NCBI GenBank assembly: GCA_964016885.1
Contig: OZ024743.1
Span: 358,236,001 to 358,300,000 of the forward strand
Length of the DNA stretch: 64,000 nucleotides
Reading direction: 5' to 3'
Source: Eledone cirrhosa
Taxonomy: Eukaryota
In this document: in pieces, positions 38,961 to 64,000 of the stretch
Numbering within the stretch: position 1 is the stretch's first letter
Layout: the number at the start of each line of letters is the position of its first letter
Translations under genes and position numbers: made by a program
Notes under the pieces: model-generated
Databases searched by the model: none
The model's input: the letters and a program-made list of their open reading frames with translations, nothing else
What the model was told of the DNA's origin: nothing

Positions 38961-39248
38961 AAATGAGCGTAGGATAGATCAAGTAATAATATATATGTAT
39001 TTTATACATATACTTTAAGAATGTGAAAGTAATTATATTTTTTAAGTAAAAATGTATCGTATTATGGTATAATCTATTATTGCATATGGTTAGTAATATA
39101 ATATTTAAACATTTATGCAAGTTGAAATGTCTCGTATATGTGAATTATTAGCAAAGAAATTTGGGGGGAGATAACTCTGTTTAGTAACTTAAAGAGTATT
39201 TACGATAGATATTTAATAATATATTGTTTCATCTAATGTTTAACCTAA

Positions 39249-40122: not shown

Positions 40123-40492
40123 AAAGAGTTAGTATATCTACCAACATATGTATACAGATGCATACCCATGCTAGCAAATATATATGTTTTGTCTTAGTAA
40201 CTTTGTGGTTCTATGCAAGGGGATGCAGAACAATTATATGAAAGACGTAAATAAGAAAGTTATGAAAATTGACTTACGTACTAAAATTTCACTCCAACTA
40301 ATTAGTTTCTGTAAGGGGATAAATATGGTTACGGAGCGTTTCCATAGAGAAGCCTTATGTCATCAGGGAGTCTATGACGTAAGGCTTCTCTATGGATACG
40401 CTCCGTAACCATATTTATCCCCTTACAGAAACTAATTAGTTGGAGTGAAATTTTAGTAAGTAAGTCAATTTTCATAACTTTCTTATTTACTC

Positions 40493-41760: not shown

Positions 41761-41889
41761 ATGTATGTATGTATGTATGTATGTATGTATGTATGTATGT
41801 ATGTATGTATGTATGTATGTATGCATGCATGTATGTATGTATGTATCTATGTATGTATGTATGTATCTATGTATGTATGTATATATATT

Positions 41890-42583
41890 TTGGAAAGCTC
41901 TATGTGTGACAGTATAGAAGCTCTTGTGCTTAAGCAGCGACTCCGTTGGAGTGGTCACCTTGCCAGGATGAAGGATTCTAGAATACCAAAACAACTCTTC
42001 TATGGAGAGTTGGTTAAAGGAAAACGACCGCCACATAAACCAAAAAAGAGGTATAAGGATTCCTTGAAGGCCTCTCTGAAAGACGCTAACATCTCTGCTG
42101 ATACATGGGAAAATATTGCTGCTGATCGTAATAAATGGAGAAAGACTGTATATGAGGGAAAAGTTGCCTTTGAGGCATCTCGAATCGCACACGAGAAAGT
42201 AAAGCGGGACGTGAGGAAGGGTATTGCTGTTGCACTTCCAGACGGCGAGGGTCCTCCTATGTTTCTGACATGCAGCGTCTGTGCGAGACTCTGCCTAAGC
42301 AAAGCTGGACTCGAAAGTCATCTTCGCAGTCATAAAGTAAGACCAGTGGTTGACTACCAGGCTGCTGTTGGAGATGCTACTCATCATGCTTGCCAAACAT
42401 GTGGTAGAGAATGTAAATCAGCAGGAGGACTCAAGCGACATGCAAAAGTACACGAACTCCAACCACAGCCGACTATTCCCAGTAAATGTTTTGGTTGCCG
42501 ACTCTGTGCAAGACATTTTAGATCATTGGCTGGGCTAAAAAGCCACATTCGATCGCAGCACTGTTAGTTGCTATCGTGTGTTT

Positions 42584-43097: not shown

Positions 43098-43637
43098 ATG
43101 TATGTATGTATATATGTCAGATCGCTCTCGAGTGCTACTGGTAACATGTAACCCAGTAACCTGTTTCATGGTCGGGACGTCGGCGACTAAACCGGCAACC
43201 CCACCAAGCTTGCTTGGTGAGGAGGGTGATATTTGGACACCCTGTGGGATGAAATACAAGACTCAGCAACAGCGGAGGAACTTGGCAGAGTCAACGGCCA
43301 TCCAAATAGTACTTTTTTTTTCCCCTTTGAGTGAAAGGCCCCCAGTTGTTGTCACACCACCTTTCTTCGAGAGGGAAACTCTGAATAAAAAACCAGCGGC
43401 TTCGGAAGCATCCGATGATGTTGACCAGTTCTCCTTTTCGGGTAGTGTTTTCGATGCTCAGAGAGTGAGATTGGTCAAGTGCAAGGCCTTTCCCCACTTA
43501 AAAAAACCTTGAAAGCTCAGGCATTGCTTGTTCACGATACTCTACAGGTTCGTGTGGCTGGCCATAGCCTAAAAGTGCACCAAACTCTGACAAGCGATTG
43601 CAGTACACTTAGCAGAGTTTGCAGCCATCATGTATGT
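43098..43637 (+). mobile_element. Probable non-autonomous or internally deleted RTE-related element
   Basis: About 540 bp of unique sequence starting right after (TATG)n and ending in GCAGCCATCATGTATGT, identical to the end of the preceding RTE fragment. Confidence 0.5.
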
Positions 43638-43750
43638 CTCTGCTATATCAAGCGTTAACCTAATATATACCTTCCATATACTGTATCGATTGTGTTGTTA
43701 TTTCTGTTTACGTTTTACATACATATATATATGTATGTATGTATAAATAA

Positions 43751-43778
43751 ATAGATAGATAGATATATAGATAGATAC
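43751..43778. repeat. Imperfect (GATA)n at the 3' junction of Tx1 copy C
   Basis: ATAGATAGATAGATATATAGATAGATAC. Confidence 0.9.
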
Positions 43779-43994
43779 ATTTCTTTATTTACCATAAAGG
43801 CATAAAAAGAAGGGACAAATACAAAGGGGGAGTTTACATATAATCGAGTAAAAAGGGTGTAACGTGAAAATAATCGAAAATAACCTCAAAAGGGAGGGGA
43901 CGTGATGGGGGTTGCACACACCCCCGAAAAAGTGTGCAATCCTTTGCCCGGGGAGCACATGGAGAAGGTGCTCCCCTCTCCTTTACTTCTTTAC

Positions 43995-46900
43995 CTACAG
44001 GATGGTATACAGAGAAGGCCCATTTACACGAGCCATTCTCGCCACTATCACCCACCTTTCATAAAACTGCCTGTGGCCAAGCACCTCTCTCTCCATTCTT
44101 ATCCTTCTTCCGAAGTGATATCGGAAGAAGTAGACCAGACTATGGCCAGAGAGGAAGTTGCCTGACCTCAGACCTTTCAATCGTGTCCACCAAACAACCT
44201 CTTTCAACATGGCTATTACGCACAGAAAAACCGCCTTTGCTTCCTTTGTGAAGAGGGGAGGCGGTTTGATTGTCATCACAGACTCGGCGGTCAATTTAAT
44301 CGGCGCCACCCGCGACAGCAGTTGTTCGGCGTAGCCCCACAGATCAGCCACGCCCGGACATTGCACCAATGCGTGCGCTACGGTTTCTTCGTGACGCACG
44401 CATCTAGGGCAAATCTTTTTTGAGGGATCCCTGCCCGGGCGCCCGTGTCTGTAGAGCCTCTCTCGAACGGGTAGAGCCCCCCGGTAGCACTGCCAGGCCA
44501 GTGACTTCTGGAAGTTGTCCATTGGTCCTGGGCCGAAAGTCCTACCGAACAGGCTGGCCAGTTCGTCTTCTTCCATGTCCAGCGACTCTCCAAGGGTGTC
44601 ATCGCCCCTGCTAGCCACCAGCCCTCTATAGAATGATGAGGTGGATTCTCCACCGATGGCCCGGCCCGCTTGCCAGAGAGCCCTGAGCGCCTGAGCACAC
44701 TCAGTGTGCCAGTCTCCCAGTTTTCCGGATCTTTGCTTGACCCAGGACTGTAGCTCGGTGAGTGAGACGAGTCTCGGAAAGGCTCGTTTCACGAACGGAG
44801 CCCACACCGGTTGACCAGTGAGGAATACCTGTAGGTGCCGTAGCCTTAATGCGTGCCTACGCATCATCAACCACGGCATCCCCAGCCCTCCTTTCGAAGG
44901 TTGTTGGCAGCAGATGGATCTTCTCACCATAGGAGGACGCTTCTTCCAAAGAAATTGGAAGAGCATGCGTTCCATGGTGGTGAGTGTTTCCTTAGGGCAA
45001 GGCACGACAGTCAGGCGGTAGTAAGTGACGGACGCTATGTAAATGTTCGCCACCTCCGCCCGGCCTTTTAGGGACAGCTTACACTTGGCCCATTTCTGGG
45101 TTAGTGCAAACACCTTGTTCGTAACCTCGTTCCAGTTCTTTTCCACCTGGAGGTCCGGTCCAAACCAGACCCCAAGCAACTTTACCGGGCCCTCCGTCCA
45201 GTGTCCGACGACACCATCGGGAGGCATAGGTCTGCCTCTCCACGTTCCGAGTTGCAGCCCGATGGATTTTTCCCGGTTCAGTTTCGCTCCTGACAACCTT
45301 TCGTACTCCTCCAGTAAGGTACCGATCGCCTCGATCTCCGAGTCGGTTGATACCATTACTGTTACGTCATCGGCGTAGGCCGACACCGCTTTGCTCAATC
45401 CTGGTTCCAGGGGGATACCCTGCAACAACTCCAACTTCCTCAGTAAAGGCTCGAGAGTCAATACGTACAGAAGGGAGGAGAGAGGGCACCCCTGTCGAAT
45501 GGATCGTGTGATTTCGAACGGCTTCGAAAGGTAGCCGTTCACCTTGATCCTAGAACAGATGTGGTTGCTATGTAGGGCAGTGATCCAGCCTCTGAAAACA
45601 GGACCGAACCCAGCCGCCGCTAGCACCGCATCCAGGTAACCATGGTCGACCCTATCGAAGGCCTTAGACTGATCCAAGTTGATCAGGGCCCCACCGAAGC
45701 CGGGTTTGTTGCCAACCCTCTCTATGATGTATCGCATGAGGTGGAGGTTATCGTGAATGGACCTGGATGGGATAGCACATGTCTGCGCATCTCCCACCAG
45801 GCCACCCACGACAAGCGCCAACCTCTTTGCTAACACCTTGGCCAAAATCTTTAACTCTGTGTTTAGCAGGGTTATGGGCCGAAAATTATTTATACTATCC
45901 CCCTTGTTCTCGTCCTTCCTCACCAGCGTGACTACGCCCTTGGCTACAGAACAAGGAATTCTCCCGTTCTGCTGCCAATTGCAGTAGACCGCTTCGAGGA
46001 GTTCGGAGAAGAAGACCGGCATTGCTAAATAAAGTTCGTAAGGTATACCATCGAGACCTGGAGATTTGCGTCTGCTGCATTGGCTCAGCGCATCTCCGAT
46101 CTCATCAGCCGAGATTGGTCCCTCGCAGGACTCCGCCTCTTTGTTCGAGAGACGCGGCAGGCCGTCGAGGTATGGACCGAAATCCACGCCCCGGCCCGGA
46201 CCCTCGCCTCCCCCGAACAATCGGGCAAAGTGCTTTTGAAAGGCCTCGCACATCTGCTTAGGCTCCCGGATCACTCGTCCATCTTCGTCTTGCAACGACC
46301 GGATGGTGGATCGATTTCCACTTTTAGCTTCTGTCACGCGGGCCCATCCAACGGCTTTGGCCCCCTCATTACCTAGAGCACGTATTTTACTTCGAATGAC
46401 GCAGCCTTCATGCTTTGCATCGAAAAACTGGTTCAAGGCCGTCCTCGATGCCAGCACTCTGGCCACATCTTCGCTCTTGATTGCCTCTTCTAATTTACCT
46501 GTTAATTCTTTCTCGTTTCTATTCCTATTGGCAGCTAACATCTTGCTATAACTTATTGATTCTGTTCTAATCTCTCTTTTGAGAGATGCCCACCATCGGT
46601 TGTTGACGATTGCACCCGTCAACCTCTCCTTAACTAATCTGCTAATCCGGTTTCTGTAAGTCTCTTTTGCCGGTAAAGACAAATTAAGTTTCCAGTAACC
46701 GGGACCCTGTCTATGTGTTTTCTCGAGATTGACCACGCAGGTCACTAATTTGTGATCCGTGTAGCCAACCGTGCGCATTTCTGGACAGCTTAATATGTCC
46801 CTATCCTTACTTCTAACTAAGAATCTATCTAAGTACGATCTAGATTGACCACTGTGGTTTCTCCAAGTCCAGGTAGGCACAGTTGGAAAATCTAGTCGAT

Positions 46901-47432
46901 ATCTATCGACCAAGTTAAAACGGTCGAGTAACCCCTTGAGGCTGTTACACCCCCCTCTATTAGGACATGCTCCTGCATAGTCCCAACGTGCATCTAGGAT
47001 GTCATTCCAATCCCCCGCTAGAAGCAGGGAACGCGACGTTCCCAGAAAAGTCTCCAAACGCTGGAAGAAGTCGGGCCGTTCAGCTCCGAAAGGGGAGTAG
47101 ACGGCGACCAGTCTCAAGGCCGCACTTTCACTACTGCCAACGTCTAGCACCAACAAACGACCCTCCGGGTCCGAGTGCACAACCTGTACGGCAAGACCCA
47201 GGTGTTTTTGCAGCAGCACGACAACCCCACCCCCACCTCCAGGTTGACAGAGAGATGCATGCACCTCAAAGTCATCGAAGGTGGGGGCCAGCTGCCGCAT
47301 GACGCTGATTCGAGTCTCACAGATAACCATTACATTTATACTACATGACCTGAGGTCATTTAGAAGCTTTGCTTGCTTCCAAGTTGAGCCCAGGCCACGT
47401 GCATTCAAACATCCTACTCTTAACACATCCAT
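43995..47432 (-). CDS. ORF2p: APE endonuclease, reverse transcriptase and C-terminal CCHC (zf-RVT-like), Tx1/L1 clade, 1145 aa
   Basis: APE: LNARGL, CETR, VYSP, GDWN, RSYLDRFL, TDH. Linker GPGYWKLN. RT: SPGLDG, NFRPITLLN, DQSKAFDRV, RQGCPLS, YADD, LLGV. GGLG. CPRCVRHEETVAHALVQC. Confidence 0.96.
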   Translation of the reverse strand: MDVLRVGCLNARGLGSTWKQAKLLNDLRSCSINVMVICETRISVMRQLAPTFDDFEVHASLCQPGGGGGVVVLLQKHLGLAVQVVHSDPEGRLLVLDVGSSESAALRLVAVYSPFGAERPDFFQRLETFLGTSRSLLLAGDWNDILDARWDYAGACPNRGGCNSLKGLLDRFNLVDRYRLDFPTVPTWTWRNHSGQSRSYLDRFLVRSKDRDILSCPEMRTVGYTDHKLVTCVVNLEKTHRQGPGYWKLNLSLPAKETYRNRISRLVKERLTGAIVNNRWWASLKREIRTESISYSKMLAANRNRNEKELTGKLEEAIKSEDVARVLASRTALNQFFDAKHEGCVIRSKIRALGNEGAKAVGWARVTEAKSGNRSTIRSLQDEDGRVIREPKQMCEAFQKHFARLFGGGEGPGRGVDFGPYLDGLPRLSNKEAESCEGPISADEIGDALSQCSRRKSPGLDGIPYELYLAMPVFFSELLEAVYCNWQQNGRIPCSVAKGVVTLVRKDENKGDSINNFRPITLLNTELKILAKVLAKRLALVVGGLVGDAQTCAIPSRSIHDNLHLMRYIIERVGNKPGFGGALINLDQSKAFDRVDHGYLDAVLAAAGFGPVFRGWITALHSNHICSRIKVNGYLSKPFEITRSIRQGCPLSSLLYVLTLEPLLRKLELLQGIPLEPGLSKAVSAYADDVTVMVSTDSEIEAIGTLLEEYERLSGAKLNREKSIGLQLGTWRGRPMPPDGVVGHWTEGPVKLLGVWFGPDLQVEKNWNEVTNKVFALTQKWAKCKLSLKGRAEVANIYIASVTYYRLTVVPCPKETLTTMERMLFQFLWKKRPPMVRRSICCQQPSKGGLGMPWLMMRRHALRLRHLQVFLTGQPVWAPFVKRAFPRLVSLTELQSWVKQRSGKLGDWHTECAQALRALWQAGRAIGGESTSSFYRGLVASRGDDTLGESLDMEEDELASLFGRTFGPGPMDNFQKSLAWQCYRGALPVRERLYRHGRPGRDPSKKICPRCVRHEETVAHALVQCPGVADLWGYAEQLLSRVAPIKLTAESVMTIKPPPLFTKEAKAVFLCVIAMLKEVVWWTRLKGLRSGNFLSGHSLVYFFRYHFGRRIRMEREVLGHRQFYERWVIVARMARVNGPSLYTIL

Positions 47433-47465
47433 GTGGGCGGCAGAGCCAAAGGAGAGTGTAGAGAC

Positions 47466-49343
47466 CTACCTTTCCGCTTCCCGGGGTTCGGGTTGCACGA
47501 CTTCCATGGGGTCGGGGGTGTTGGGTGAAGGGGTGTCTTGTGGTGGTGTGGGGTCGTCGGTGTGTGGTGGGGTTGGGGTGTTTGGAGTTGTGTTGGGGAG
47601 GGGAAGGGGAGGGGGAAAGCTTTTTAGTAGGACGCGGTTTATGGGTTTGACAGAGGGTGGTCCTACGTCCTCCTTAAAATCCTTTTTTAGTTTTTGGTAG
47701 AGGTTCATTGGGATTTTTATTAGTTTTAAATGTGGGTGGTTTTCTGATGAAACAAAGTTTACACCTTCGGTTTGTACCGAAGGATTATTGTATATGAGTT
47801 CATTTAATTTATTATTGTTTCTGTTGATGTAAGTATAGTGTAATGTCTTTTTTTCCGATGGTGTGAGTGTTTCGAAGAGGGGAGGGGCAGGTTTGGTTTT
47901 GTTTGTTGCTGGAGGGGTGTTTTCTGTTTTGTTAGATTGTGTTGCGATTTGGGTGGGGGTTGTTTGTCCTTGTGTGTTTTGCACATGTTTTCTTTTTTTC
48001 CTTTTAATCTGTCTGAAGGACTCCGTTTCTTCCTCCGAATTCGTTGGGTTATCTTCAGTGTTGGAGGGAAGAGGTATGTTTGCTGGTAATGTTTCCGTGT
48101 TGGTTTTCTTTGTGGGGGAGATGGATGTCACTATGTTAGACTGTGTTGTGTGTTGTGTCTGCGGTGGTTGTGTTGTTTTATTGAGTGAGAGGTTGGGTGG
48201 GCCTGTATTTTGTTTTGGGGTAATGTGTTGTGACTGTTTGTGTTGTGGTGGTGTTGTGGTGTTACTGAGGGACGGGTTGGGTGGGACTGAGTTTTGTTGT
48301 TTGTTTATCTGTTGTGGTGGTGGTGGTGGAGCTGGTGTTGGTAGCAGGGTTTTCTTTTTGTTGAGTTGGGGACAAGCGGCCTTCAGGTGCCCTCTGCCTG
48401 CACAGATATGGCAGGACGGCCTTCTCCCCTCCACGCTAATGTTTATATACCCGTGGTCCTCTAATAGGATTCTGTCGGGTATTTGGGCGATGCGTTCAGG
48501 CTTCATTTGTACTACCAGCTCTATACCTGTTCCACTGAACGCATTGCCTGTGGTTTTCCCAATGGAAATCACGTTGTCATTCACTGGATCGATGAAGCCA
48601 GCTATGAGCCAGCAGTAGTCCACATCTGGCATCATTGCATCCAGCCATATGCGTTGAGTTTTTTTCCCCATATAAGATGGATAAAAGGTGAAATTTTTCG
48701 AACGAATCGGTGACAAAGCACATTTTTTTGCCGCCGATTCGTTCTTCATGATAATTGCTAGGCTTCCATACAGTCTGTCTTTTCTTATGAAAGTTGTTTC
48801 ATTCAGTACTTCTGCGAGTACTGTTTTGATATCTGCTTGAGAAGGCTGTTCAGGTTTTTTTGTACTGTTGTTGATGGTCCGAAACTTGACCGTTCGGCTT
48901 TCAATGTCTTTCGTGAATTCTTGAGGCATTTTTACCAATAAAATACCATTCTCACCTTCACTTATGTATTGTTTTGCGTCCGTGATCCTTCGTACCACAT
49001 CTGAAATGTTTTCCGCTATATAAGTCAAAGATTTCTTTGTTTTCTGTGCAAATGAAATCTTGTCGTCTGCTTTGTTTTCTGATATTATGTTATTTTCAAC
49101 TGTTATTTTTTTGTTTGTTGTGTCTTTGTTTGTGTTATTAGTATTGTCATGCAATTTTTCAAATTTTTTTTTTTCGTTGTTTTCGTCATTTAATTTTTTC
49201 TCCGCAGATTCGTCCGTTTTTATTTTCATTTTTCCTTCCTTCTCTATGACGTTAGTTGGGAAGGAAGGGAGGACTAAAGCGTGCGAGCTTACAACTCTTA
49301 CCGCTGTCCCCCCACCACTATTTTCGTTCGCTGCGTTTAACAT
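47466..49343 (-). CDS. ORF1p: gag-like nucleic-acid chaperone with one CCHC zinc knuckle and a Pro/Thr/Gln-rich disordered region, 625 aa
   Basis: CHICAGRGHLKAAC (CX2CX4HX4C). Homologous frames occur in copies B, D and F. Confidence 0.9.
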   Translation of the reverse strand: MLNAANENSGGGTAVRVVSSHALVLPSFPTNVIEKEGKMKIKTDESAEKKLNDENNEKKKFEKLHDNTNNTNKDTTNKKITVENNIISENKADDKISFAQKTKKSLTYIAENISDVVRRITDAKQYISEGENGILLVKMPQEFTKDIESRTVKFRTINNSTKKPEQPSQADIKTVLAEVLNETTFIRKDRLYGSLAIIMKNESAAKKCALSPIRSKNFTFYPSYMGKKTQRIWLDAMMPDVDYCWLIAGFIDPVNDNVISIGKTTGNAFSGTGIELVVQMKPERIAQIPDRILLEDHGYINISVEGRRPSCHICAGRGHLKAACPQLNKKKTLLPTPAPPPPPQQINKQQNSVPPNPSLSNTTTPPQHKQSQHITPKQNTGPPNLSLNKTTQPPQTQHTTQSNIVTSISPTKKTNTETLPANIPLPSNTEDNPTNSEEETESFRQIKRKKRKHVQNTQGQTTPTQIATQSNKTENTPPATNKTKPAPPLFETLTPSEKKTLHYTYINRNNNKLNELIYNNPSVQTEGVNFVSSENHPHLKLIKIPMNLYQKLKKDFKEDVGPPSVKPINRVLLKSFPPPLPLPNTTPNTPTPPHTDDPTPPQDTPSPNTPDPMEVVQPEPREAER

Positions 49344-49577
49344 TTCTGTTAGACGATTGAAATTTTTTACACAAAATTTTTTTTTAAAACAGGTTTTTCA
49401 CCTCTAGGAGGGGTAAAGATGAGCTGACCCACCGCCTGACAGTTCAGACGGAGGGTCAAGCTACACAATTGTATCAAAATTAAGTTTGAACTCACAAAAT
49501 TTCCTCAATAAATTTGAACAAAACTTCTGTGCGAAGTGAATGACATCCACACTGTAGAACAGACGACAGCTAGATTT

Positions 49578-49627
<50 letters not shown>
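49578..49627. repeat. (GATA)n spacer between copies C and D
   Basis: Direct reading. Confidence 0.97.
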
Positions 49628-49648
<21 letters not shown>

Positions 49649-52600
49649 TTCTTTATTTGCCACAAGGGCACACAAGAAAAGGGGACAATACAAAGACATG
49701 CCGGGGAATTTACATACAGTCGTGTAAAAAATATAAAACAAACAATTATAACAATCGAAATCCCCAATAGAGGGGGGGGCACAAATGGGTTGTCTAATAC
49801 CCCGTAGATAGAACAACCCTCAACTTCAGGAGCGTGTTGTGCAAGTGCACCTTTCTTCCTTTTGTTCTCTTCTTTAACCTACAGGCTTATAAACAGAGAC
49901 GGCCCAATCACTCGGGCCATTTTCGCTTCATTCACCCACCTTTCAGTAAATTTACTGGGGTGCAGTGCCTCTCTCTCCACTCTGATTCCCCTTCTAAAGT
50001 GATACTTAAAGAAGGGAATCAATTGTTGTCCGGAGAGAAAGGCATCTGTCCTCAGTCCTCTCAATCTCGTCCACCATATAACCTCTTTCGCCATAGCCAC
50101 TGTGCAGAAGAAAACCGCCCCTCTTTCGTTTTTCAAAGAGGCTGGTGGTTTGATCCTTACTATGGACTCGGCAGTCAACTGGATTTGTCCCATACGCGAC
50201 AGCAGTTGTTCTGCATAGTTCCACAGGTCGGTTACGCCCGGGCAGTGTACAATTGCCTGCAGGACGGTTTCAATGTCCTGCGCGCATCTTGGACACTTCC
50301 TCTTGGAAGGATCCCTGCCGGGGCGTCCGTGCCTGTAGATCTTGTCACGAACTGGAAGAGCTCCTCGGTAGCACTGCCGGGCCAGGGACCTCTGGAAGTT
50401 GTCCATAGGTCCCGGGCGGAAAGTCCTACCAAACAGACTGGTGAGCTCATCGTCTTCGACGCCCAGAGTCTCTCCGAGCACGTCGTCGCCCTTGTAACGT
50501 ACAATCCCTCTATAGAATGTCGAAATGAAGACTCCACTGATTGCTGTGCCCGCTTGCCAGAGGACTGTGAGCGCCTGAGCGCATTCAATGTGCCAGGCGC
50601 CCATCGTTTTCGGTCTTTTCTTGACCCAGGACTGCAGCTCCGTCAGCGAGATGAGCTGCTGAAAGTCTGTCTCACAAACGGTGCCCACACCGGTTGGGGG
50701 TCGGTGAGGAATACCTGGAGATGCCGCAACCTCAGCGCATGTTTGCGCATCGCATCATCAACCACGGCATTCCCAGCCCTCCGTTGGAAGGGTGCTGACA
50801 GCAGACGGATCTCCTCACCAGCGGAGTCTGCTTCTTCCACATAAACTGGAAGAGCATGCGTTCCATCTTGGCGAGCTGTTCACGGGGACAAGACACGACA
50901 GTCAAGCAGTAGTAGATGACGAACGCTATGAATGTGTTCGCCACCTCCGCTCGACCTTTCAAGGAGAGTTTGCAATCAGCCCAATTCTGGGTGAGTGCAA
51001 ACACCTTCGCCGTGACCTCGTTCCAGTTCTTGTCCACCTGGAGGTCTGGACCAAACCAGACCCAGAGCAATTTCCCCGGTCCTTCCGTCCAGCGTCCAAC
51101 GACACTGAAGGAAGACATGGGTTTGCCTCTCCATGTGCCGAGTTGCAAATCGACAAATTTGGCCGGGTTTAGTTTTGCTCCCGTCAGCGTTTCGTATTCT
51201 TTCAGTAAGTTGCCGATCACCCCGATTTCCGAGGTGCTCGACACCATTACCGTCACGTCGTCGGCATAAGCTGACGCCGCTTTGCGCAGTCCCGATTTTA
51301 GAGGGATGCCCTGCAACAGCTCCAATTTCCGCAGTAGTAGCTCTAGAGTCAATACATACAGAATTGAGGAGAGAGGGCATCCCTGTCGAACGGAAGGCGT
51401 GATTGCGAACGGCTCCGATAGGTAGCCGTTCACCTTGACCCTTGAGCAGATGCTGGTGTGCATCGCCTCGATCCAGCCTCTGAAAACAGGACCGAAAAAG
51501 TCGCCTTGAGAACCGCTTCCAAGTATCGATGGTCGACCCTATCGAATGCCTTAGACTGATCCAAATTGATCAGAGCCCCACTGAAGCCGGGTTTACTACC
51601 CACCCTCTCTATGATTTATCGCATGAGGTGGAGGTTGTCGTGTATGGACCTGGTCGGGATTGCACACGTTTGCGCTTTCCCTACCAGGTTCTCGACGACA
51701 AGCGCCAACCTCGTCGCTAGCACCTTGGCCAAAATATTTAACTCTGTGTGGAGCAGAGTTATGGGCCTGAAATTGTGAATTTCGTCCCCCTTGTTTTTGT
51801 CTTTCCTGATCAGCGTTACTACGCCCTTGCCTGCAGAACTGGGAATTCTCTCGTTCTGCTGCCAATTGCAGTAGACGGCTTCAAGGATGCCAGAGAACAA
51901 GTCCGGCATGCCTATGTAAAACTCATAGGGTAGACCATCGAGACCGGGTGATTTGTGTTTACCGCAGCGGCCCAGAGTGTCCCATATCTCAGTGTCCGTG
52001 ATCGGTCTTTCGCATAACTCGGCGTCCGTGTTCGAGAGACGCGGCAGGCCGTCGAGGTATGAACTAAAGTCCATTGCCCGTTTAGGTCACTGTCGTTCTG
52101 CTCAAACAGTCGCGCAAAGTGCTGCTGAAAAGCCGCGCACATTTGCTTGGGGTCAAGTAGCACGCGTCCGTTTAGGTCTTTCAAAGACCGAATCATAGAC
52201 TTGTTGCCACTTTTTGCCTCTGCCACTCGGGCCCAGCTGACAGCTTTCGCTCCTTCGTTTCCTAGAGCACATGTTTTGCTTCTGACTACGCAACCTTCGT
52301 GTTTCGCATCGAAGAACTGGTCCAGTGCCGTTCTCGACGCTAACACTCTAGCCGCGTTGCCACTTCTAAGTGCCTCCTCTACCTTGGCTACTAGTTCTCT
52401 TTCTATTTTGTTTTTCTCTAAGGTTAACTCTCTGCTAAACCCTATCGATTCTACTCTAATTGCTTTCTTGAGAGAGTACCACCATCTATTGTTGACAATG
52501 GCTCTCGTTAACTGTTGCTTGACTAGTCTACTTATCTGTTCACCGTAAGCTTTACGTGCCGGCAACGATACGCTCAGCTTCCAGTATCCGGGTCCCTGTC

Positions 52601-54160
52601 TATGTGTTCTATCACGATTGACTATGCAGACGACTAATTTGTGATCTGAATAGGCAACCATGTGCATTCGTGGACAACTTAACATCTCCTTGTCCCTTTC
52701 TCTAATGAAGAACCTATCTAAATACGATCTAGATGTCCCGCTGCGGTTTGCCCACATCCACTGGTGCAGTCGGGAAATCCAGTCATACCTATCGGCCAGT
52801 TGGAATTGGCCGATTAAAGTTTTGAGGCTGTTGCACCCCCACCCCCTCTACTGGGACATGCTCCCACATAGCCCCATCGTGCATCTAGGATACCATTCCA
52901 GTCCCCCACTATAAGTAAGGCGCGAGACGTTCCCAAAAAAGACTCTAGACGCAGTCTGCCCGGTCGGGGCATAAACGGCCACTAGTCTGAAGGCTCCACC
53001 TCCAATACTGTTCACGTCTAGGACTACCAGTCTACCCTCCGGGTCCAAGTGTACTTGCTGTACTTCGACGTCCAGGTTCTTCCGAAACATGACAGCCACT
53101 CCCCCTCCACCTCCTGGCTGACAGAGAGATGCGTAGATCTCAAAGTCGTCGAAGATTGGCGTTAGTTGCTGCCTGTTGTGGATCCTGGGCATCCCGAGGC
53201 CACGCACATTCACGCTTCCAACTCGTAAACTAGCCATGTTGGTGAAGAAGAGTTGGAGAAAAAGGACGAAAAGGTGCACTTACCTTTTCGTTTCCTGGAG
53301 ATCGGGTTGTTCAATCTCCATTTGGGTGCTGGAGGAGGTGTTGGGTGGGGTGGGGAAACATTTTAACAGGACGCGGTTGATGGGTTTCTGGCAGGGGTTG
53401 CCCACGTCCTGCGAAAATTTATTTTTCAGGTCACTATAGGTCTCCATAGAAACCCTTATAAGTTTAAGGTGTGGAAACGATTCTGCCTTGACGAAAGTTT
53501 TGCCCTCCGTCTCTTGGGGTTTGGGGAGATGACCTCCACCGAAATATTTATTTTGTTGTTGTCGTCGATGACGACTTTTTCGGGTATTTTGGAGATTCCC
53601 TTTGGCCTCATCTGCATCAGAATCTCCAAATCAGTACCCGCCCACCTTTGTCTCATAGACTTCCGTATCGAAAAAATAGCATCAGTCTCTGGCTCCACGA
53701 AGCCAGCCAAGATCCACCAGATGTTAATGTTTGGTGGTATATTTTTTATTTTTATTTTTTGTGTCCTTTTTCCCATGTACGTAGGGGAAAAGGTGAATTC
53801 TTTTGACACCATTGGTGTCACAGAATGTTTTTGGGCGAGTGTCTCGCTTTTATACAGTACGGAAATACTTCCGTACTGTCTTCCTCGTTGAAGAAAGTCA
53901 ATATTTTCTAAAATCTTCTTCAAGGTGGCTTCTATGTCTCCTTGACTCACAAATACTGGCTTTCTCGTTGTGTTTGAGACAGTCCTGAAGGTCACTGTCC
54001 TTTGAACCGTCTCTTCTTTTATTTCGAGGCGTGAGTTGATTCTAAACCCACCCTTGTCTTCGAAAGTTACAAATTTTCTCCCTTGCTGGAGCATACCCCT
54101 TGCATTGGAGATGTCAAGATTTATAAAATCTTGTTTTTTGTTCACTGTTTCAGCGAAAGA

Positions 54161-54212
<52 letters not shown>

Positions 54213-54238
54213 GCTGTTGCTGCTGCTGCTGCTGCTGC

Positions 54239-54319
<81 letters not shown>

Positions 54320-54855
54320 CAGCCTCGGTGTTAGAAATCGCAATTTCTTGACGAGGTGAAATTTTATCTCTAGGTGTATCTATAGAGTTGGTGTTGTTGG
54401 ATTTTTCATGTGTATGTATATTAATAGGTTTAATTCCTCTGTTTTCCTGTGTATGCTGTGTGTTATTTTTCTCCGCTTCGACGGTAGAAATTTTAAAATG
54501 TTCAATTGGCAATATTTTTTTTTCTTTGTTGACAGTCGTATCCATGACGACGTCCATAGTGGCAGAAGTAGATATAACGTTAATATCTGCCTTTCTACCT
54601 CTCTTCCCTCTGTCGACGTTCTCCGGCGTTCTTTCCGAGTTATTCATGTTTTATAGTCGGCAAAATTTGATTTTTTTTTAACAATTTTTAAATTAAATTT
54701 TCGCCCCTAAAGGGGCGAAAAATGGGATTACCACCCAGCTGACAATTCAGCTTGGGGGTTAATCTACAAAATGATATGTTTTTTCAAACAATTAGTTCAG
54801 TTTTTTGTATAGAAATTTACAAAAAAGCTTACCAGCGATGTTCCACGCGTCAGGC
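49628..54855 (-). mobile_element. Tx1-group LINE copy D, both ends present, frameshifted; ORF1 (54647-53280) lacks the knuckle by deletion and has an (AAC)n expansion; ORF2 53237-49879
   Basis: ORF fragments 49879-50688, 50732-51463, 51616-52074, 51912-52757, 52848-53279, 53456-54343 and 54150-54647 are all homologous to copy C. Confidence 0.93.

Positions 54856-54928
<73 letters not shown>
54856..54928. repeat. (GATA)n spacer between copies D and E
   Basis: Direct reading. Confidence 0.97.
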
Positions 54929-55163
54929 TGTTGCTTTATTAGCCACAGGGCCAAATACAAAGGGGGAAGTTTACATACAATAAAACGTGTAAAATGTTAT
55001 CACAAATGCAATTTAAAAAATTAGTCGATTTTCCCCAATAGGGGGAGACAGTTCATATGGGTAACACATACCCCCGAAAAAATGTGCAACCCTCATCTCC
55101 AGGAGTACGAAGAGTTTGTACTCCTTTCCTCTCCTCCTCCTTTTCCTCAACCTACAGGCTGAT
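54929..55163 (-). mobile_element. Tx1-group LINE copy E, extremely 5'-truncated (3' UTR plus the last few ORF2 codons)
   Basis: 3' UTR homology. CTACAGGCTGATATAGA (reverse of ...YISL*) runs directly into (GATA)n at about 55165-55177. Confidence 0.88.
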
Positions 55164-55177
55164 ATAGATAGATAGAT

Positions 55178-58100
55178 TTCTATTTATTGCCACTAGGGCG
55201 CAAAAGAAGGGAACAAATACAAGGGGGAGTTTACACAAAAAGGCGAGTAAAGAAAACAAATAACAAATATAAAATTAACAATAAAGACCTCAATAGGGAA
55301 AAAAGTGTGCAACCCCTTCTCCTCAGGAGCACAGAGAGGGGGTGCTCCCTCGTTCCTTCCTCTTTTCCACCTACAGGCTGATGTAGAGAGAAGGCCCATT
55401 CACACGGGCCATTCTCGCCACTTTCACCCACCTTTCATAAAAACGACTGGGGTTGAGCATCTCTCTCTCCATCCTGATCCTTCTTCCGAAATGATATCGG
55501 AAGAAACGGATCAGTTGTTGGCCAGAGAGAAAGGTACCTGACCTGAGTCCTTTCTGACGCGTCCACCATACAACCTCTTTCACCATGGCTATTACGCACA
55601 GAAACACCGCCTCTCCTTCATTTCTTGTCAACCGGATCGGTCCCACCCGTGATAGCAGTCGTTCGGCATAGCCCCACAGATCGGCTACGCCCGAGCAGTG
55701 TACCAATGCGTGTACAACGGTTTCCTCGTCGCACACGCCGCATCTGGGACAGATCTTTTTGGCGGAGTCCCTACTCGGGCGCCCGTGTCTGTAGAGCTTT
55801 TCTCGAACGGGTAGAGCCCCTCGGTAGCACTGCCAGGCCAGGGACTTCTGGAAGTTGTCCATAGGTCCCGGGCTGAATGTCCTACCGAACAGGCTGGCCA
55901 GTTCGTCTTCCTCCATGTCTAGGGCTTCTCCGAGGGCGTCGTCGCACCTGCTGCGTACCAGCCCTCTATAGAATGTCGCGGTGGAGTCTCCACTGAAAAC
56001 CGGGTCTTCCTGCCAGAAGGCCGTGGGCGCCTGGGCACACTCAGTGTGCCAGGCGCCCAATTTTCTCGGTCTTTGCTTGACCTAGGATTGCAGCTCGGTG
56101 AGTGAGACGAGTCTGGAAAAGGTTCGTCTCACAAACGGGGCCCACACCGGTTGACCGGTGAGGAATACGTGGAGGTGTCGTAGCCTTAATGCGTGTTTAC
56201 GCATCATTAGCCACGGCATCCCCAGCCCTCCTTTCGAAGGGTGTTGACAGCAGATGGATCTCCTCACCAAAGGAGCCCGCTTCTTCCAAAGGAATTGGAA
56301 GAGTGCGCGCTCCATCTTGGCGAGGGTTTCCCTTGGGCAAGGCACGACGGTCAGGCGGCAGTAGATGACGGACGCTATATAGGTGTTCGCCACCTCCGCC
56401 CGACCTTTCAGGGATAGTTTGCAACTGGACCACTTCTGGGTCAGTGCAAACACCCTGTTCGTAACCTCACCCCAGTTCTTCTCCACCTGGAGGTCTGGTC
56501 CGAACCAGACCCCGAGCAACTTCACCGAGCCCTCCGTCCAGCGTCCGACGACGCCATCGGAGGGCATCGGTTTGCCCCTCTACGTGCCGAGTTGCAAACC
56601 GATCGACTTGTCCCGGTTCAGCTTAGCCCCTGTGAACCTTTCGTACTCCTCCAGTAAGGTGCCGATCGCCCCGATTTCGGAGGCCGTCGACACCATTACT
56701 GTCACGTCATCGGCGTAGGCCGACACCGCTTTCCGCAATCCCGGTTCCAAAGGGATGCCCTGCAACAACTCCAACTTCCGTAGTAGTGGCTCGAGAGTCA
56801 ATACATACAGAATGGAGGAGAGAGGGCACCCTTGTCGGATGGACCGCGCGATTTCGAACGGCTCAGAGAGGTAGCCGTTCACCTTGACTCTAGAGCAGAT
56901 GCGGCTGCTGTGCATAGCAGTGATCCAGCCCCTGAAAACAGGTCTGAAGCCTGCCGCCGCTAGCACCGCATCCAGGTAACCATGGTCGACCCTATCGAAC
57001 GCCTTAGATTGATCCAAGTTGATCAGGGCCCCACCAAAGCCGGGTTCGTTCCCAACCCTCTCTATGATGAATCGCATGAGGTGGAGGTTGTCGTGGATGG
57101 ACCTGGACGGGATAGCACATGTCTGCGCATCTCCCACCAGGTTGCCCACGACAAACGCCAACTTCTTTGCTAGCACCTTGGCCAAAATATGTAACTCTGT
57201 ATTTAGCAGAGTTATGGGCCTGAAGTTACTTATTTCGTCTCCCTTGTTCTCGTCCTTCCTCACTAGCGTGACTACGCCCTTGGTCACAGAACAGGGAATT
57301 CTCCCGTTCTGTTGCCTGTTGCAGTAGACGGCCTCGAGGAGATCGGGGAACAAGTCCGGCATAGCTAGATATAGTTCGTATGGAAGACCATCGAGACCCG
57401 GGGATTTGCGTTTGCCGCATTGGCTCAGCACGTCCTCTATCTCAGCGGCTGAAATCGGCTCCTCGCAGGACTTCGCCTCCTCGTCCGAAAGACACGGCAA
57501 GCCGTCGAGGTATGGACCGAAGTCCACTCCCCCAACCGGCTCCCCGCCCCTTCCGAACAATCGGGCAAAGTGCCTTTGAAAGGCCTCACACACCTGCTTA
57601 GGTTCAAGGATCGTCCGTCCATCCTGGTCTCGCAAAGACTGGATGGTGGATTTAATTCCACTCTTGGCTTCTGTCACGCGGGCCCAGCTAACAGCTTTGG
57701 TCCCTTCGTTCCCTATAGCACGTATTTTACTTCGAACAACGCAGCCTTCGTGCTTCGCGTCGAAAAACTGGCTCAAAGCCGTTCTCGACGCTAGCACTCT
57801 GGCCACGTCGCCGCTTCTAATTGCCTCTTCTACTCTATCTATCAGCTCCCTTTCCTTCCTATTCCTATCCGCAGCTAGAACCTTACTAAATTCTATCGAG
57901 ACTAATCTAATCTCTCTCTTTAGAGATACCCACCACCTGATGTTGACGATCGCTCCAGTCAACCGCTCCTTAACTAACGTACTAATCCGGTCTCTGTAAG
58001 CTTTACTTGCCGGTAAGGACAAGTTCAGCTTCCAGTAACCGGGACCCTGTCTATGCATTCTATCAAGGTTGACCATGCAGGTCACCAACTTGTGGTCTGA

Positions 58101-60812
58101 ATAGCCAACCATGAACATTTCTGGACAACTTAAAAAGTCCCTGTCCTTATTTCTAACTAAGAACCTATCTAGGTACGATCTAGATTGACCGCTACGATTT
58201 GTCCAAGACCAGGTTGGCACCGTCGGAAAATCTAGTCGAAATCTATCGGCCAGGTCAAATCGGCCGAGTAACCCCTTGAGGCTTTTACACCCCTCTATAT
58301 CGGTACATGCCACTGCATAGTCCCAACGTGCATCAAGGATACCATTCCAGTCCCCCACTAAAAGCAGGGAACGGGACGTCCCTAGAAAAGACTCCAGACG
58401 TTGGAAGAAGTCGGACCGCTCTGTCCCAAAAGGGGCATATGCGGCTACCAGCCTAAAGGCTCCACCTTCACCACTGCCAAGATCCAACACCACCAGTCGA
58501 CCCCCTGGGTCCAAGTGAACTATCTGTGTGGCGAGACCCAGATGTTTTTGCAGCAGAACGACAACCCCACCCCCACCTCCGGGCTGACAGAGAGATGCGT
58601 GCATCTCAAAGTCATCAAAGGTCGGGGCTAGCTGTCGCACGCTGCTGATCCGGGCCTCGCAGATAACCATCACATTTATAGATCGTGACCTGAGGTCATT
58701 TAGAAGCATTGCTTGCTTCCAAGGTGAGCCCAGGCCACGCGCATTTAGACACCCTACTCTCAGCACAGCCATGTTGGTGGTAAGGAGAAAAGGCACTTAC
58801 CTCTCTGCGTCCCGGGGAGCGGGCCGCTCAATTTCCATGAGGGTTGGGGATGGGTTGTTGGGTGGGGTGGTGGTTTGTGGAAATGTAGGGGCATCAGTGT
58901 GTTGTGGAGTTGGGTGTTTGTAGTTGAGTGGGTGTCTGAGTAGGGGGTGGGGACATTTTTTAGGAGGACGCGGTTGATTGGCTTGATGCAGGGGGGGGGG
59001 GGCACGTCGTCAGTGAAATTTATTTTCAACGTTTTGTATAAGTTCATTGGGACTTTAATCATTTGTAAATGAGGTAGTCCCACAGCAGTTAGAAAGTTAG
59101 GCCCTTCAGTTTGGACCGAAGGGTTTGACGAAATTGTGTTCATTAGTTCTTTGTTGTTTGTGTTCATGAATGTATATTGTAAAGTCTTTTTTTGCGTTGC
59201 AGTTAGTGTTGTGTGACGGGGAGGGGTGGTTTGTATATAGTTTGTTTTCTCTTGGGGAGGGTTTATGTTAATAAGTGTGTCTGTGGTGCGCCTCCTCTTC
59301 TTTCTTTTTACTATTTGGAAGGGATCTTTTTCGTCTTGCGACGAAAGGGGTTCGTCTTCCTTGTTGGGTGGGAGGGGTATATTTTCTAGTAGTGTTTGCG
59401 GTGTGTGTGTTTTTGTATTTGTTTTGGGTGGGGAGGGGTTGGGTGGGACAGTGTTCTGTGTTGTTTTTTCACGTGTTTGTTGTTGTTGTTGTGGTGGTGG
59501 TGTTGTTGGTTTTGTTGTTGTTGTTGTGGTTGTTTTTGTTGTTGTTGTTGGGGTGGTGGTGGTGTTGGTTGTTTTTGATGTTGTTGTTGGGGTGTTGGTA
59601 GCAATGGTTTTTTCGGTGTGAGCTGGGGACAGGCAGCCCTCAGGTGACCTCTGTTGCCACAGAGGTAACAGGAGGGACGCCTACCCTCCACAATAATGTT
59701 GAGGTGGGTACGGTCATCCAGCATGACGCGTTCAGGGATTTGGGCGATACGTTCTGGCCTTATTTGGGTCAGAACTTCAATGCTCGTTCCACTGAATGCG
59801 TCGCCGGATGCCTTCCCTATTGATATAAGGTTGTCCTCGTCCAAGTTGAGGAAACCGGTTGGTAACCACCAGTAGTTTATGTTTGGGGTGATAGTGGTTA
59901 TCCTAATTCTTTGGGGTTTTTTACCCATGTAGGTTGGAAAAAAGGTGTAATGTGTGGAACGAATTGGCGACACAGAGTATTTTTTCGCCGCCAATTCGTC
60001 TTTCATCAATATGGATAAACTCCCATAGAGTTTATCCTTTTGTATGAAAATTGTCTTTCATAGCCTCTTTCAGGACCAACTGAATTTCAGCTTGAGATGG
60101 TTGCGCTGGTTTTCTTGTTTTGTTGGCAATTGTACGGAATACAACAGTTCGTAATTCCGTCTGTTTTTTTAGTTCTGGGGGCGAATTGATGGGAAAAGAT
60201 CCATTTTCGCCAAAAGATACATATTTTTTTGCTTTTTCAAGCATTTCTTTTGCATTTGTTATATCCTCAAGCACATAGGTGACTGATATTTTAGCAGTCT
60301 GTGCAAAAGATATTTTGTTTTCGTTGTTGGTGTTTGAGTTGTTCTGTTTCTCGTAGTTTGAGTTATTTTCATTTTTGTTGTTGTTGTCTTTCTCATTTGG
60401 TGCGTTGGTTTTGTCATTGTTAGTGTTTTCGTTGTAATTAATTGGGTTTGCACCCGTATTTACTTGTTTGCCCGGCATATCGCCTTTTACAAAGTCTTTT
60501 AAAACGTTGACGCGGGAAAGCAAAACGCTTTGTAACGCTTGCTTCTTTCTCACTTCTTCCTTAGTGAACGTGGTGTTTTCGTTCACACGTGCTACAGACA
60601 TGGCGTCAATTTTTTACCATGTGAGTCAGCAAAAATTTTTTGGAGTAGTTTTTACCCCCAAAAGGGGTAAAAATACGATGACCACCCGTCTACAGACCTA
60701 GCCGGCTGGTTAAAAGACACGAAGACAACACAATAAAGAGACAAAGACTTACTGTCAATAGGTAAAAATTCAAAAAGGCAGGAGCCGATGTTGTACGCGT
60801 CTATACTATGCG
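55178..60812 (-). mobile_element. Tx1-group LINE copy F, full length, lightly damaged (ORF1 60601-58797 frameshifted; ORF2 58772-55371 with two TGG>TAG stops and a short deletion)
   Basis: ORFs 56580-58796, 56082-56567 and 55371-56060 are in one frame. Knuckle CYLCGNRGHLRAAC. (GATA)n on both sides. Confidence 0.95.
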
Positions 60813-60833
60813 AGATAGATAGATAGATAGATA
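60813..60833. repeat. (GATA)n spacer between copies F and G
   Basis: Direct reading. Confidence 0.95.
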
Positions 60834-63800
60834 TCTTTCTTTATTTGCCACAGGGGCGTACAAAAATGGGACATTACAAAACGTGACGGCGGGGGTTTTA
60901 CATAAAATATTTAACAATGATAAATAACAATAAACTATATAAAAATAAAACAATTGAAATCCCCATAGGGGGGGGGGGGTAACGCTACTGCGGAGTTGTT
61001 TTACATCCCGTGGATAGAACAACCCTCAACACCAGGAACACGTTTTGTAGGTGTTCCCGTCTTCCCTCTGTTTATCTTCCTCAACCTACAGGTTTATATA
61101 CAGAGAAGGCCCATTCACCCGGGCCATTTTCGCCACATTCACCCACCGTTCAGCGAATTTACTGGGGTATAGCACCTCTCTCTCCACTCTCACCTCCCTT
61201 CTGAAGTGGTACTTAAAGAAGGGGATGAGTTGGTGCTTGCCCTCAGTCCTTTTAACCTCGTCCACCATATTACCTCTTTCGCCATAGCCACCAGAAAACC
61301 GCCTCTCCTTCATCCTTAAATGAAGGCGGCGGGTGATCCTCACGATGGACTCAGCTGACAACTGGATGCGTCCTACACGTGACAGTAGCTGTTCGACATA
61401 ATTCCACAGGTCGGTCACCCCTGAGCACTGAACAATTGCATGCAGAACGGTTTCGATGTCCTGGAAGTTATCCATAGGCGCTGAACGGAAAGTCCTCCCG
61501 AACAGACTGGTCAGTTCGTCTTCCTCGATGCCTAGAGTTTCCCCGAGAACATCGTCGCACTTATCCTCCACTAATCCCCTATAGAATGTCGAAGTGGAGT
61601 CTCCGCTGATTGCCGTTTCCGCTTGGTAGAGGGCTGTGAGCGCCTGAAAGCACTCGAGGTGCCAGGCGCCCATTTTCGGTCTTCGCTTGACCCAGGACTG
61701 CAGCTCTGTTAGTGAGACGAGTTGTGGAAGAGCTCGTCTCACAAACGACAGCCACACCGGTTCGCCGGTCAGGAACACCTGGAGATGGCGTAGCCTCAGC
61801 GCGTGTTTGCGCATCATCAGCCACGGCATGCCCAGCCCTCCGTTAGAAGGGTGTTGATAGCAGATGGATCTCCTCACCAATGGAGCCTGTTTCTTCCAAA
61901 GGAACTTGAAGAGTAGGCGTTCCATTTTGGTGAGGTATTCTCGAGGACAAGGCACGACTGTCAAGCGGTAATAGATGACGGACGCTATGTAGGTGTTCGC
62001 CACCTCCGCTCGACCTTTCAAGGAGAGTTTGCACTCAGTCCACTTCTGGGTGAGTGCAAACACCTTCGCCGTGACCTCGTTCCAGTTCTTGTCCACCTGG
62101 AGGTCTGGACCAAACCAGACCCAGAGCAATTTCCCCGGTCCTTCCGTCCAGCGTCCAGCGTCCAACGACACTGAAGGAAGGCATGGGTTTGCTTCTCCAT
62201 GTGCCGAGTTGCAAACCGACAGACTTGTTTGGGTTTAGTCTTTCTCCTGTAAACCTTTCGTATTCCTGTAATAGGTTGCCGATTACCCCGATTTCCGAGG
62301 CTTTCGACACCATTGTGGTTATGTCGTTGGCATAGGCCGACGCTGCTTTCCGCAGTCCTTGTTCGATCGGGATCTCCTGCAACAGCTCCAACTTCCGCAG
62401 TAATGGCTCGAGAGTCAGTACATACAGAATGGAGGAGAGAGGGCACCCCTGACGGATGGAACGCATGATTTGGAATGGCTCCGATAGGTAGCCATTCACC
62501 TTAACTGCCGAGCAGATGCTGGTATGCATAGCAGCGATCCAGCCTCTGAAGACAGGACCGAAGCCGGCCGCCTTGAGAACCGCTTCCAAGTATTGATGGC
62601 CGACCCTATCAAATGCTTTAGACTGATCTAAATTGATCAGAGCCCCACCGAAGCCAGGTTTACACCCTACCCTCTCTATGATGTATCGCATGAGGTGGAG
62701 GTTGTCGTGTATGGACCTGGTCAGGATTGCACACGTTTGCGCTTCCCCTACCAGATTCTCGAGGACAAGCGCCTCACTGCTAACACCTTGGCCAAAATAT
62801 TTAACTCTGTGTTGAGCAGAGTTATGGGCCTGAAATTGCTTATCTCATCCCCCTTGTTCTCATGTTTCCTTAACAGCGTAACTACGCCTCTGCCTACAGA
62901 ACTGGGAATTCTCTCGTTCTGCTGCCAGTTGCAGTAGACCGCTTCGAGGACGCCAGAAAACAAGTCTGGCATAACTATGTAAAACTCATAGGGTGATTTG
63001 CGTTTCCCACAGCTGTCCGCATCCGTGTTCGAAAGACGTGGTACGCCGTCGAGGTAGGAGCTGAAGCCCATCACCTCCCTTGACGTACCGCTTTGCCCAA
63101 ACAGTTGTGCAAAATGCTGCTGGAAGGCCGTGCACATCTGCTTGGATTCAAGTAGAATGCGTCCATCTTTGTCTTGCAAGGACCGAATTGTGGATTTGTT
63201 GCCACTTTTCACCTCTGCCACTCGGGCCCAGCTAACAGATTTGGCTCCCTCGTTTCTTAGAGCACGTGTTTTACTTCTGACAATACAACCTTCGTGTTTC
63301 ACGTTGAAGAACTGGTCTAGTGCCGTTCTCGCCGCTAGCACGTCAGCTGTACTGCCATTCCTAAGGGCCTCTTCTACTTTAGCTACCAGTTCCTTTTCGG
63401 TTTTGTGTTTTTCTAAAGCTACTTCCTTGCTAAATGCTATCGATTCTATTCTAATTGCTCACTTGAGAGATCTCCACCACCTGTTGTTGACGATCGCCCC
63501 CGTCAACTGGCATTTAACTAAGGTGCTAATCCGTTTACTGTAGGCCTTACGCGCCGGAAGCGACATGTTTAGCTTCCAGTATCCGGGTCCCTTCTGTGTG
63601 TTCTATCAAGGTTGACTACGCAGGTGACTAATTTGTGGTCTGAATAGGCAACCATGTGCATTTGTGGACAGCTTAATGTTTCCTTATCTTTCTGTCTAAT
63701 TAAAAATCTATCTAAATACGATCTAGAAGACCCAGTGCGGTTGCTCAACGTCCACAGTGGTACACTTGGGAAGTCTAGTCGATATCTATCAGCCAGTTGG

Positions 63801-64000
63801 AATTGGCTGACGAGGTTTTTGAGGCTATTACATCCACCTCTATTATCACAAGCTCCTACATAATCCCAACGTGCATCTAAGATGCCATTCCAGTCCCCCG
63901 CTAACACTAAGGAGCGAGACGTTCCCAGGAATGGCTCCAGGCGCTTGAAGAACTCTGGTCGCGATGTCCCAGTCGGGGCATATACGGCCACCAGTCTGAA
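60834..64000 (-). mobile_element. Tx1-group LINE copy G, frameshifted ORF2, continues beyond the window
   Basis: ORF fragments 61086-62171, 62035-62691, 62748-63341 and 63569-63991 are homologous to ORF2 of copy C. Confidence 0.93.

Follow-up and report, generated by a model that had tools for sequence, protein, structure and literature searches.

The question raised by this locus is how several LINE copies came to lie head to tail, in a single orientation, with nothing but short (GATA)n tracts between them. Five such units (C, D, E, F and G) form a train that begins within the window, the whole 64,000-nt stretch of DNA that was analysed. We consider it probable that the train represents independent insertions, stacked one after another, of a young and abundant family that lands in (TATC)n one way and duplicates ~19 bp, the GATA strand being nicked likely by the APE endonuclease.

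Layout of the train and anatomy of its units

All five units are APE-RT LINEs on the minus strand, joined solely by (GATA)n (Table 1). The train covers 43,754-66,562 (22.8 kb), its end lying 2.5 kb beyond the window. Unit lengths are 5.2-5.8 kb and tblastn matches are colinear, with no unit holding another; unit E meets its tract at a few bases that also match the repeat. Every 3' end reads GTGG-N-AATAAA-(N)GAAA, followed by a dinucleotide and then TATC, with no poly(A). The earlier description of five consecutive, co-oriented units that are parted only by GATA tracts, never nested and devoid of poly(A) was thus accurate. A second stack of two units, A and B, also lies within the window and was absent from that description. 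The window sits at 358.24-358.30 Mb on a 378.8-Mb contig (C4) of the 3.0-Gb genome. The train is therefore interstitial, as had been proposed, being 20 Mb short of the contig end.

Table 1. Features of the window and its surroundings, in window numbering unless a locus is named
Feature	Position	Strand	Description
Short inverted element	16060-16260		similar to the palindromes below
Unit A	16832-17336	-	same lineage; fragment covering the RT region, with 5' truncation at a GATA tract and no 3' part
GATA tracts	17337-17376 and 22821-22856		border unit B
Unit B	17377-22818	-	decayed full-length copy, another subfamily
Unit B hairpins	22650-22730		paired, 5' UTR
Other-LINE fragment	24182-25306	+	RT with DUF6451
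SINE-like repeat	31887-32287, 38367-38975, L325-L345		~200 bp, tandem copies
Palindromes	37141-37513, 40248-40488		long, perfect or near-perfect, between (TA)n
Other-LINE fragment	41710-42567	+	C-terminus with several C2H2 zinc fingers
(GATA)n	43754-43777	.	interrupted; at unit C 3' end (3' target copy)
Unit C	43780-49575	-	young full-length LINE, 5,796 bp, both ORFs open
C ORF2	43995-47465	-	1,156 aa between stops; residue 12 is the first Met
C ORF1	47466-49397	-	643 aa between stops; 49343 is the first ATG
Unit C hairpins	49395-49480	-	two adjacent, 5' UTR
(GATA)17	49578-49645	.	links the 3' end of D to the 5' end of C
Unit D	49649-54855	-	older subfamily, full 5' end, frameshifts, ORF1 deletion
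Unit D hairpins	54685-54770		paired, 5' UTR
(GATA)18	54857-54928	.	links the 3' end of E to the 5' end of D
Unit E	54929-55162	-	234-bp 5'-truncated piece
(GATA)n, 3-4 units	~55163-55178	.	short; between F 3' end and E
Unit F	55179-60812	-	full length, in-frame stops in ORF2
Unit F hairpins	60640-60720		paired, 5' UTR
(GATA)5	60814-60833	.	links the 3' end of G to the 5' end of F
Unit G	60834-64000, on to ~66458	-	continues beyond the window
(GATA)26	66459-66562	.	closes the train beyond unit G
ATT-lineage copies	71.6-76.8, 79.8-80.8, 83.4-89.4, 90.4-92.9 kb		four copies, all on the same strand (L031-L033)
ATT-lineage hairpins	L031:3285-3370, L033:6240-6345		paired, 5' UTR
ATT-lineage ORF2	L033:686-4300		open

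Could the train have arisen by tandem duplication, or be an assembly error? Elsewhere in the genome, same-family neighbours exist (L082/L083, L096/L097), and three copies of the sister lineage described below share identical flanks. Over ORF2, however, the train units are only 75-80% identical; their first ~700 nt gave no blastn match between units, and the ORF1s of the other units are 35-60% identical to that of C. This divergence argues against tandem duplication. Moreover, the train mixes distinct subfamilies, whose dispersed relatives number in the hundreds; local duplication cannot explain such a mixture, and mixed joints of the same kinds recur at 35/79 other loci. The units also differ in age: the nearest genomic copy of C differs from it by 8 substitutions, whereas those of D, F and G are 96% (over the 5' 356 nt), 97% (343 nt) and 97% (349 nt) identical, respectively, showing that C arrived last. 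Duplication or misassembly is thus extremely improbable, and the proposal of independent insertions by different subfamilies stands.

Unit C has the L1/Tx1-type layout of an ORF1 ahead of an ORF2 with APE endonuclease (catalytic motifs intact), RT (YADD) and a C-terminal zinc finger. Pfam recognised Exo_endo_phos, RVT_1 and, just below the cut-off, zf-RVT. A CCHC zinc knuckle in ORF1 is a feature of the Tx1 clade, and the ORF1 of C, which has no match in Pfam, carries one such knuckle (CX2CX4HX4C) at residue 329. The best solved relative of ORF2 is human L1 ORF2p (E 3e-51; R2 only 1e-20), and the nearest named proteins are hypothetical proteins of Argonauta hians (63-67%), which makes an octopod host probable. 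Target-site duplications (TSDs) of 15-23 bp and 5' truncation, both found here, are likewise of the L1/Tx1 type. By domain layout and the L1 ORF2p match, we class the units as L1/Tx1-like APE non-LTR retrotransposons, membership of the Tx1 clade itself being putative. A scan of metagenomes for DNA surrounding a 39% relative found nothing. Both frames are kept in 32/60 full-length C relatives, and among 150 copies identical over the last 201 aa, 89 lie in a 1,156-aa frame (hand count). Judged from these sequences, the C family is young and appears to be still spreading in the genome.

A pair of hairpins lies ~110-170 nt into the 5' UTR, with z of -3.0 to -5.8 across the six subfamilies examined. 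B, D, F and G as well as the ATT lineage share its fold but not its sequence, and the UTRs hardly align. Rfam had no match on the hairpins and gave only microRNA matches under the threshold, located on a simple repeat; a promoter, translation or packaging signal is possible. The remaining repeats of the window include fragments of other LINEs on the plus strand and three palindromic elements, which are fold-back or MITE-like insertions in TA repeats.

The (TATC)n tract as insertion target

We asked how tightly the elements are tied to the repeat. The exact 22-nt 3' end of the C type occurs 1,571 times in the genome and is followed by T-N-TAT(C/A)TAT in 1,385 cases, leaving 186 without the exact motif. 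Reversed-pattern controls for 3' end plus target motif gave 0, and the background rates per position are 1.4% for TAT(C/A)TAT and 0.02% for TATCTAT. Seventy-nine young copies, taken from two lists (39 + 40), were read at both ends. Positions 3-9 past the 3' end were TAT(C/A)TAT in 78/79, and the opposite polarity, with the GATA strand at a joint, occurred in 0/79. At least two TATC units lay within 30 nt of the 5' junction in 59/60 full-length copies and in 12 of the 19 that are 5'-truncated or internally deleted. Among these 19, CTAT(C/A) stands at the 5' junction in 16, and the target is absent in three (L091, L099 and L100); L100 is an internal deletion whose own 5' end was unread, and it was excluded from neighbour counts. 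TATC also precedes the 5' ends of D (20/20), F (20/20), G (19/20) and C (28/30), each set holding the copy from the window. PMC4494074 calls an element target-specific when more than 20% of its flanks are of one type, a share exceeded here at both the 3' (1,385/1,571) and the 5' (59/60) side.

Supply of the repeat does not account for this association. Across 40 samples of 10 kb taken at even spacing, (AGAT)n made up just 13 of ~1,030 perfect microsatellites of at least 12 bp, against 559 (AT)n and 36 (AG)n tracts, so the association seen in the train exceeds chance. The near-uniform TAT(C/A)TAT flank, although (AG)n outnumbers (AGAT)n 36 to 13, also sets the target apart from (TC)n, (TTC)n, (TTCC)n and (TTTC)n. 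Neither a majority of unique 5' flanks nor random orientation, two outcomes named beforehand as counting against a GATA target, was found, and the strand-specific GATA/TATC target put forward by the sequence-only reading is upheld.

TSDs were informative, in that they share non-repeat bases, in 20/79 copies. They measure 15-23 bp with a mode of 19 (exactly 19 bp in 9/20), and three are ambiguous in low-complexity DNA. The element end consists of AATAAAGAAA plus a lineage-linked dinucleotide, and the TSD begins right after it, at TAT(C/A)TAT. The four bases preceding the TSD are TATC in 16/20, and the last of them is C in 19/20. As a sign of read-through from the RNA, the two TSD copies point both ways: the 3' TSD copy is nearer to perfect TATC in L073 and L088, and the reverse is true of L234 and L245 (low-complexity). 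Contigs of three sequencing runs over 43200-50200 gave no usable empty-site joint, the left flank being repetitive and the reads cut at the tracts.

These duplications bear on whether GATA might instead be a 3' tail written by the element, akin to the RTE-type microsatellite tails described in part of PMC6007223, with the 5' tracts being the tails of earlier copies. The tracts at young copies (median 6 units 5' and 4 units 3') do exceed typical ones, as 2/13 sampled tracts reach 20 bp, and one third of the 5' tracts come after an older 3' end. However, the TSDs take in unique flanking bases on both sides, showing that the repeat is target and not tail. Furthermore, 3' tracts are as short as 0-1 unit, the 5' tract is if anything longer than the 3' one (Wilcoxon p=0.014), and no older element lies upstream of 51/79 5' tracts. 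The RTE-type arrangement, a repeat at the 3' side only and a unique 5' joint, is not what these copies display, and we regard a written tail as very improbable. The insertion leaves target on both sides, as had been claimed, in the form of the two TSD copies.

How would such an insertion proceed? The endonuclease is likely selective for the repeat and would nick the GATA strand. The TATC-preceded TAT(C/A)TAT at the TSD start points to a first nick after GATA, at 5'-GATA/GATA-3'. This nick would prime target-primed reverse transcription, and a second would fall ~19 nt further on. Because the poly(A) signal lies just ~6 nt from the element end, transcription probably reads through and leaves a few UAUC units on the RNA, which would aid priming; such units would also explain the absence of poly(A). 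As both TSD copies are target again, trains could grow from any joint: later subfamilies would reuse any tract, whether before, behind or between older copies, and a few same-family neighbours would come from local duplication instead. The sequence-only reading had the APE nicking (GATA)n strand-specifically. The strand specificity of the target was confirmed, whereas the endonuclease as its sole determinant is something we infer.

One observation was set aside in this context. A TG variant of the dinucleotide after AATAAAGAAA is tied to an internal SNP (4/4 vs 0/76). It was considered as proof of read-through and rejected, since ATT copies share the same TC end; the link marks the two terminal bases as the element's own.

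A sister lineage in (ATT)n and the choice of target

Relatives that share this 3' end but have (ATT)n after it were found past the train and in random samples. Past the train, each of the four copies ends in (ATT)n and lies within or next to copies of an unrelated repeat that bears an RT. One ATT family is as young as C (100% matches) and strictly ATT, at 25/25 5' ends and 20/20 3' ends. In an older family, ATTATT follows 18/25 ends and ATTAT 21/25 (counted by eye). A reading of a third lineage as (TAG)n-targeting, from the single copy L139, was rejected, as these same counts (18/25 and 21/25) make it ATT-type. The SINE-like repeat of Table 1 often lies directly after the (ATT)n of this lineage.

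An endonuclease tree, built without pieces shorter than 170 aa and with just two of the near-identical C copies retained, placed the GATA types in one clade apart from the ATT types (support 0.96) and resolved at least seven GATA subfamilies. GATA and ATT endonucleases are ~60% alike, with fixed differences in several loops. The hairpin loop, which part of PMC1950540 links to target choice, differs little between the two.

The pair of lineages raises the alternative that the RNA chooses the target: a loosely A/T-selective endonuclease would make nicks that are extended only when paired to repeat units at the transcript end, and the target would be inherited from the parent site. Several features are compatible with this. 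GATA and ATT lineages both end in AATAAAGAAATC yet their targets differ. A poly(A) signal very close to the 3' end is expected to direct cleavage beyond it, in the flank, as RNA choice would have it. The 5' joints are mostly seamless and in phase in D, F, G and the ATT copies, while 56 C copies show 33 different joints. In 3/20 ATT copies, the repeat breaks off 6-9 nt into the 3' flank, and this departure is unduplicated at the 5' joint. Annealing is also reported to assist SART1 and R1Bm, according to part of PMC7265360.

Other joints argue against RNA choice. Five C copies (L080, L094, L098, L244 and L251) sit at C-TATATAT, where the sixth base is target-duplicated and leaves ~3 nt of UAUC pairing. 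The base upstream of the TSD, which the RNA cannot read, is the near-invariant C noted above. A swapped long copy (a C-type body in ATT, or an ATT-type body in TATC) was not seen among the 13 cross-pattern loci read (5/10 and 8/19 matches), which comprised 7 D-type copies in TATC, 3 ATT-type copies in ATT and 3 that were too short for assignment. Finally, 5' leader variants that D copies hold in common did not track relatedness. We therefore see choice by the RNA as possible but on the unlikely side. A wider form of the idea is that the sister lineages keep to GATA and ATT since transcripts carry the parent's repeat, that the target is partly inherited from the site and that a large part of the genome's long GATA tracts is both used and rebuilt by the family; this we hold to be doubtful. 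Selection of the (TATC)n target by the endonuclease is the reading that we retain.

Trains across the genome and in other systems

We also examined how common trains are. A co-oriented neighbour across a tract accompanies 44/79 young copies (28 upstream, 30 downstream, 14 both); the neighbour is of a different subfamily in 35/79 and antisense in 1. When the first 100 listed C-type ends of contig 1 are taken in order, 9 adjacent pairs are no more than 12 kb apart, against 0.6 expected; all 9 are co-oriented, whereas distant pairs are co-oriented in 46/90. Landing beside older copies is enriched relative to all TATC tracts (35/79 vs 4/38, p=3e-4), but not significantly so against longer tracts (35/79 vs 3/13, p=0.23). 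At L244, the 5' end of an older G-type unit contributes 8 nt to the 19-bp TSD and another 3' end lies upstream, which proves insertion between two older units.

Train sizes were read in the second set of 40, where the 23 copies showing signs of a neighbour were followed for another 10 kb; sizes are lower bounds by eye. Trains of at least 5 units hold 4/40 copies (L239, L244, L249 and L264), and 2/40 (L244 and L258) are in trains >20 kb. A simple geometric model predicts 6-7% for such trains. Extrapolated from 4/40 to the 1,571 ends, there are probably about a hundred trains of this size genome-wide.

HeT-A and TART form telomeric head-to-tail trains, and the sequence-only reading had likewise seen here a polarised, self-extending, telomere-like array. 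This did not hold, as copies land upstream, downstream and between units, and such trains recur. Neither a site at a chromosome end nor terminal addition was observed. The train is a common by-product, neither exceptional nor telomere-like, and needs no special function.

Some further structures were noted at or near trains. Same-family tandems (L082/L083, L096/L097, L230-L232 and L218/L219), often of three copies, have the same joints and are separated by 0-5 substitutions: none in 5.8 kb for L082/L083, against 43 to the next copy, and 5 for L096/L097. They reflect local duplication by unequal exchange or an assembly artefact. Upstream of L281/L258 (G000:C1 ~212.38 Mb), a ~970-bp unit is repeated four times before a train and contains (TATC)10-19 and a 106-bp piece of the lineage; it is a minisatellite born at a train end. 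In the train of L244 (L293, ~13.8-14.1 kb downstream), the last unit holds a 300-bp inverted piece resembling a twin-priming 5' inversion. At three sites (L128, L137), the end of an unrelated repeat adjoins (TA)n with 3-4 units of TATC, a possible further source of short TATC tracts.

Sequence-specific insertion is familiar from Tx1 families, among which Mutsu targets 5S and Dewa tRNA spacers. For microsatellite-targeting APE elements, the accessible parts of PMC4494074 and PMC3812793 give ACAY, AC, TC, TTC and TTCC/TTTC, with TAA listed for Dong. Our literature search, which left Repbase, Dfam and subscription papers outside its scope, found no GATA/TATC-targeting LINE. That (TATC)n is a new target is strongly supported, the Kibi/Koshi-like habit of targeting microsatellites being already known. 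Like Kibi in (TC)n, Koshi in (TTC)n and crocodilian Tx1 in (TTCC)n/(TTTC)n, as described in parts of PMC4494074 and PMC3812793, the present elements are two-ORF APE-RT LINEs specific to the pyrimidine-rich strand of a microsatellite. They differ in targeting (TATC)n and in having an (ATT)n sister, the comparison being one of targets.

In Octopus vulgaris, the accessible text of PMC13282606 reports 13 recently active L1-Tx1 families (421 insertions) among 80 families that occupy 56 Mb in all, and these may include relatives of the GATA lineage; that text and its supplement hold no target analysis of L1-Tx1, with 0 matches to 'GATA' and 'target'. PMC8967140, in its accessible part, counts octopus L1-Tx1 elements, with targets absent. 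Recognition of microsatellites by APE-type LINEs is described as poorly understood in part of PMC3812793. The GATA/ATT pair, young, intact and in one genome, with a readable cut position and TSD length, offers a natural test of repeat choice by the endonuclease. As relatives span 24 of the 400 kb in the 40 samples, the habit shapes the repeats of this genome. It can confound GATA microsatellite markers, and co-oriented stacks of 15-22 kb are substrates for unequal exchange.

The elements resemble human L1 ORF2p in the APE-RT-zinc finger layout, the catalytic motifs and the duplications of 15-23 bp, and differ from human L1 in having no poly(A), a strict repeat target and a zinc knuckle in ORF1. 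Tandems formed by repeated insertion at a duplicated target are known for SINEU-3/Tx1-Mar and for R1 and P elements (parts of PMC4494074 and PMC5932611). As in those tandems, the copies lie head to tail with duplicated target between them, through repeated insertion and later expansion by unequal exchange; unlike them, the present trains consist of full-length LINEs of at least seven subfamilies in a dispersed microsatellite target, with a neighbour at 44/79 copies. Oriented insertion into a simple repeat and co-oriented arrays are shared with SART1/TRAS1 in (TTAGG)n and with HeT-A/TART, as far as parts of PMC7265360 and PMC5932611 describe them. In contrast to these telomeric systems, the copies described here are dispersed along contigs, carry no poly(A) at the joint and form trains that can grow at any joint.
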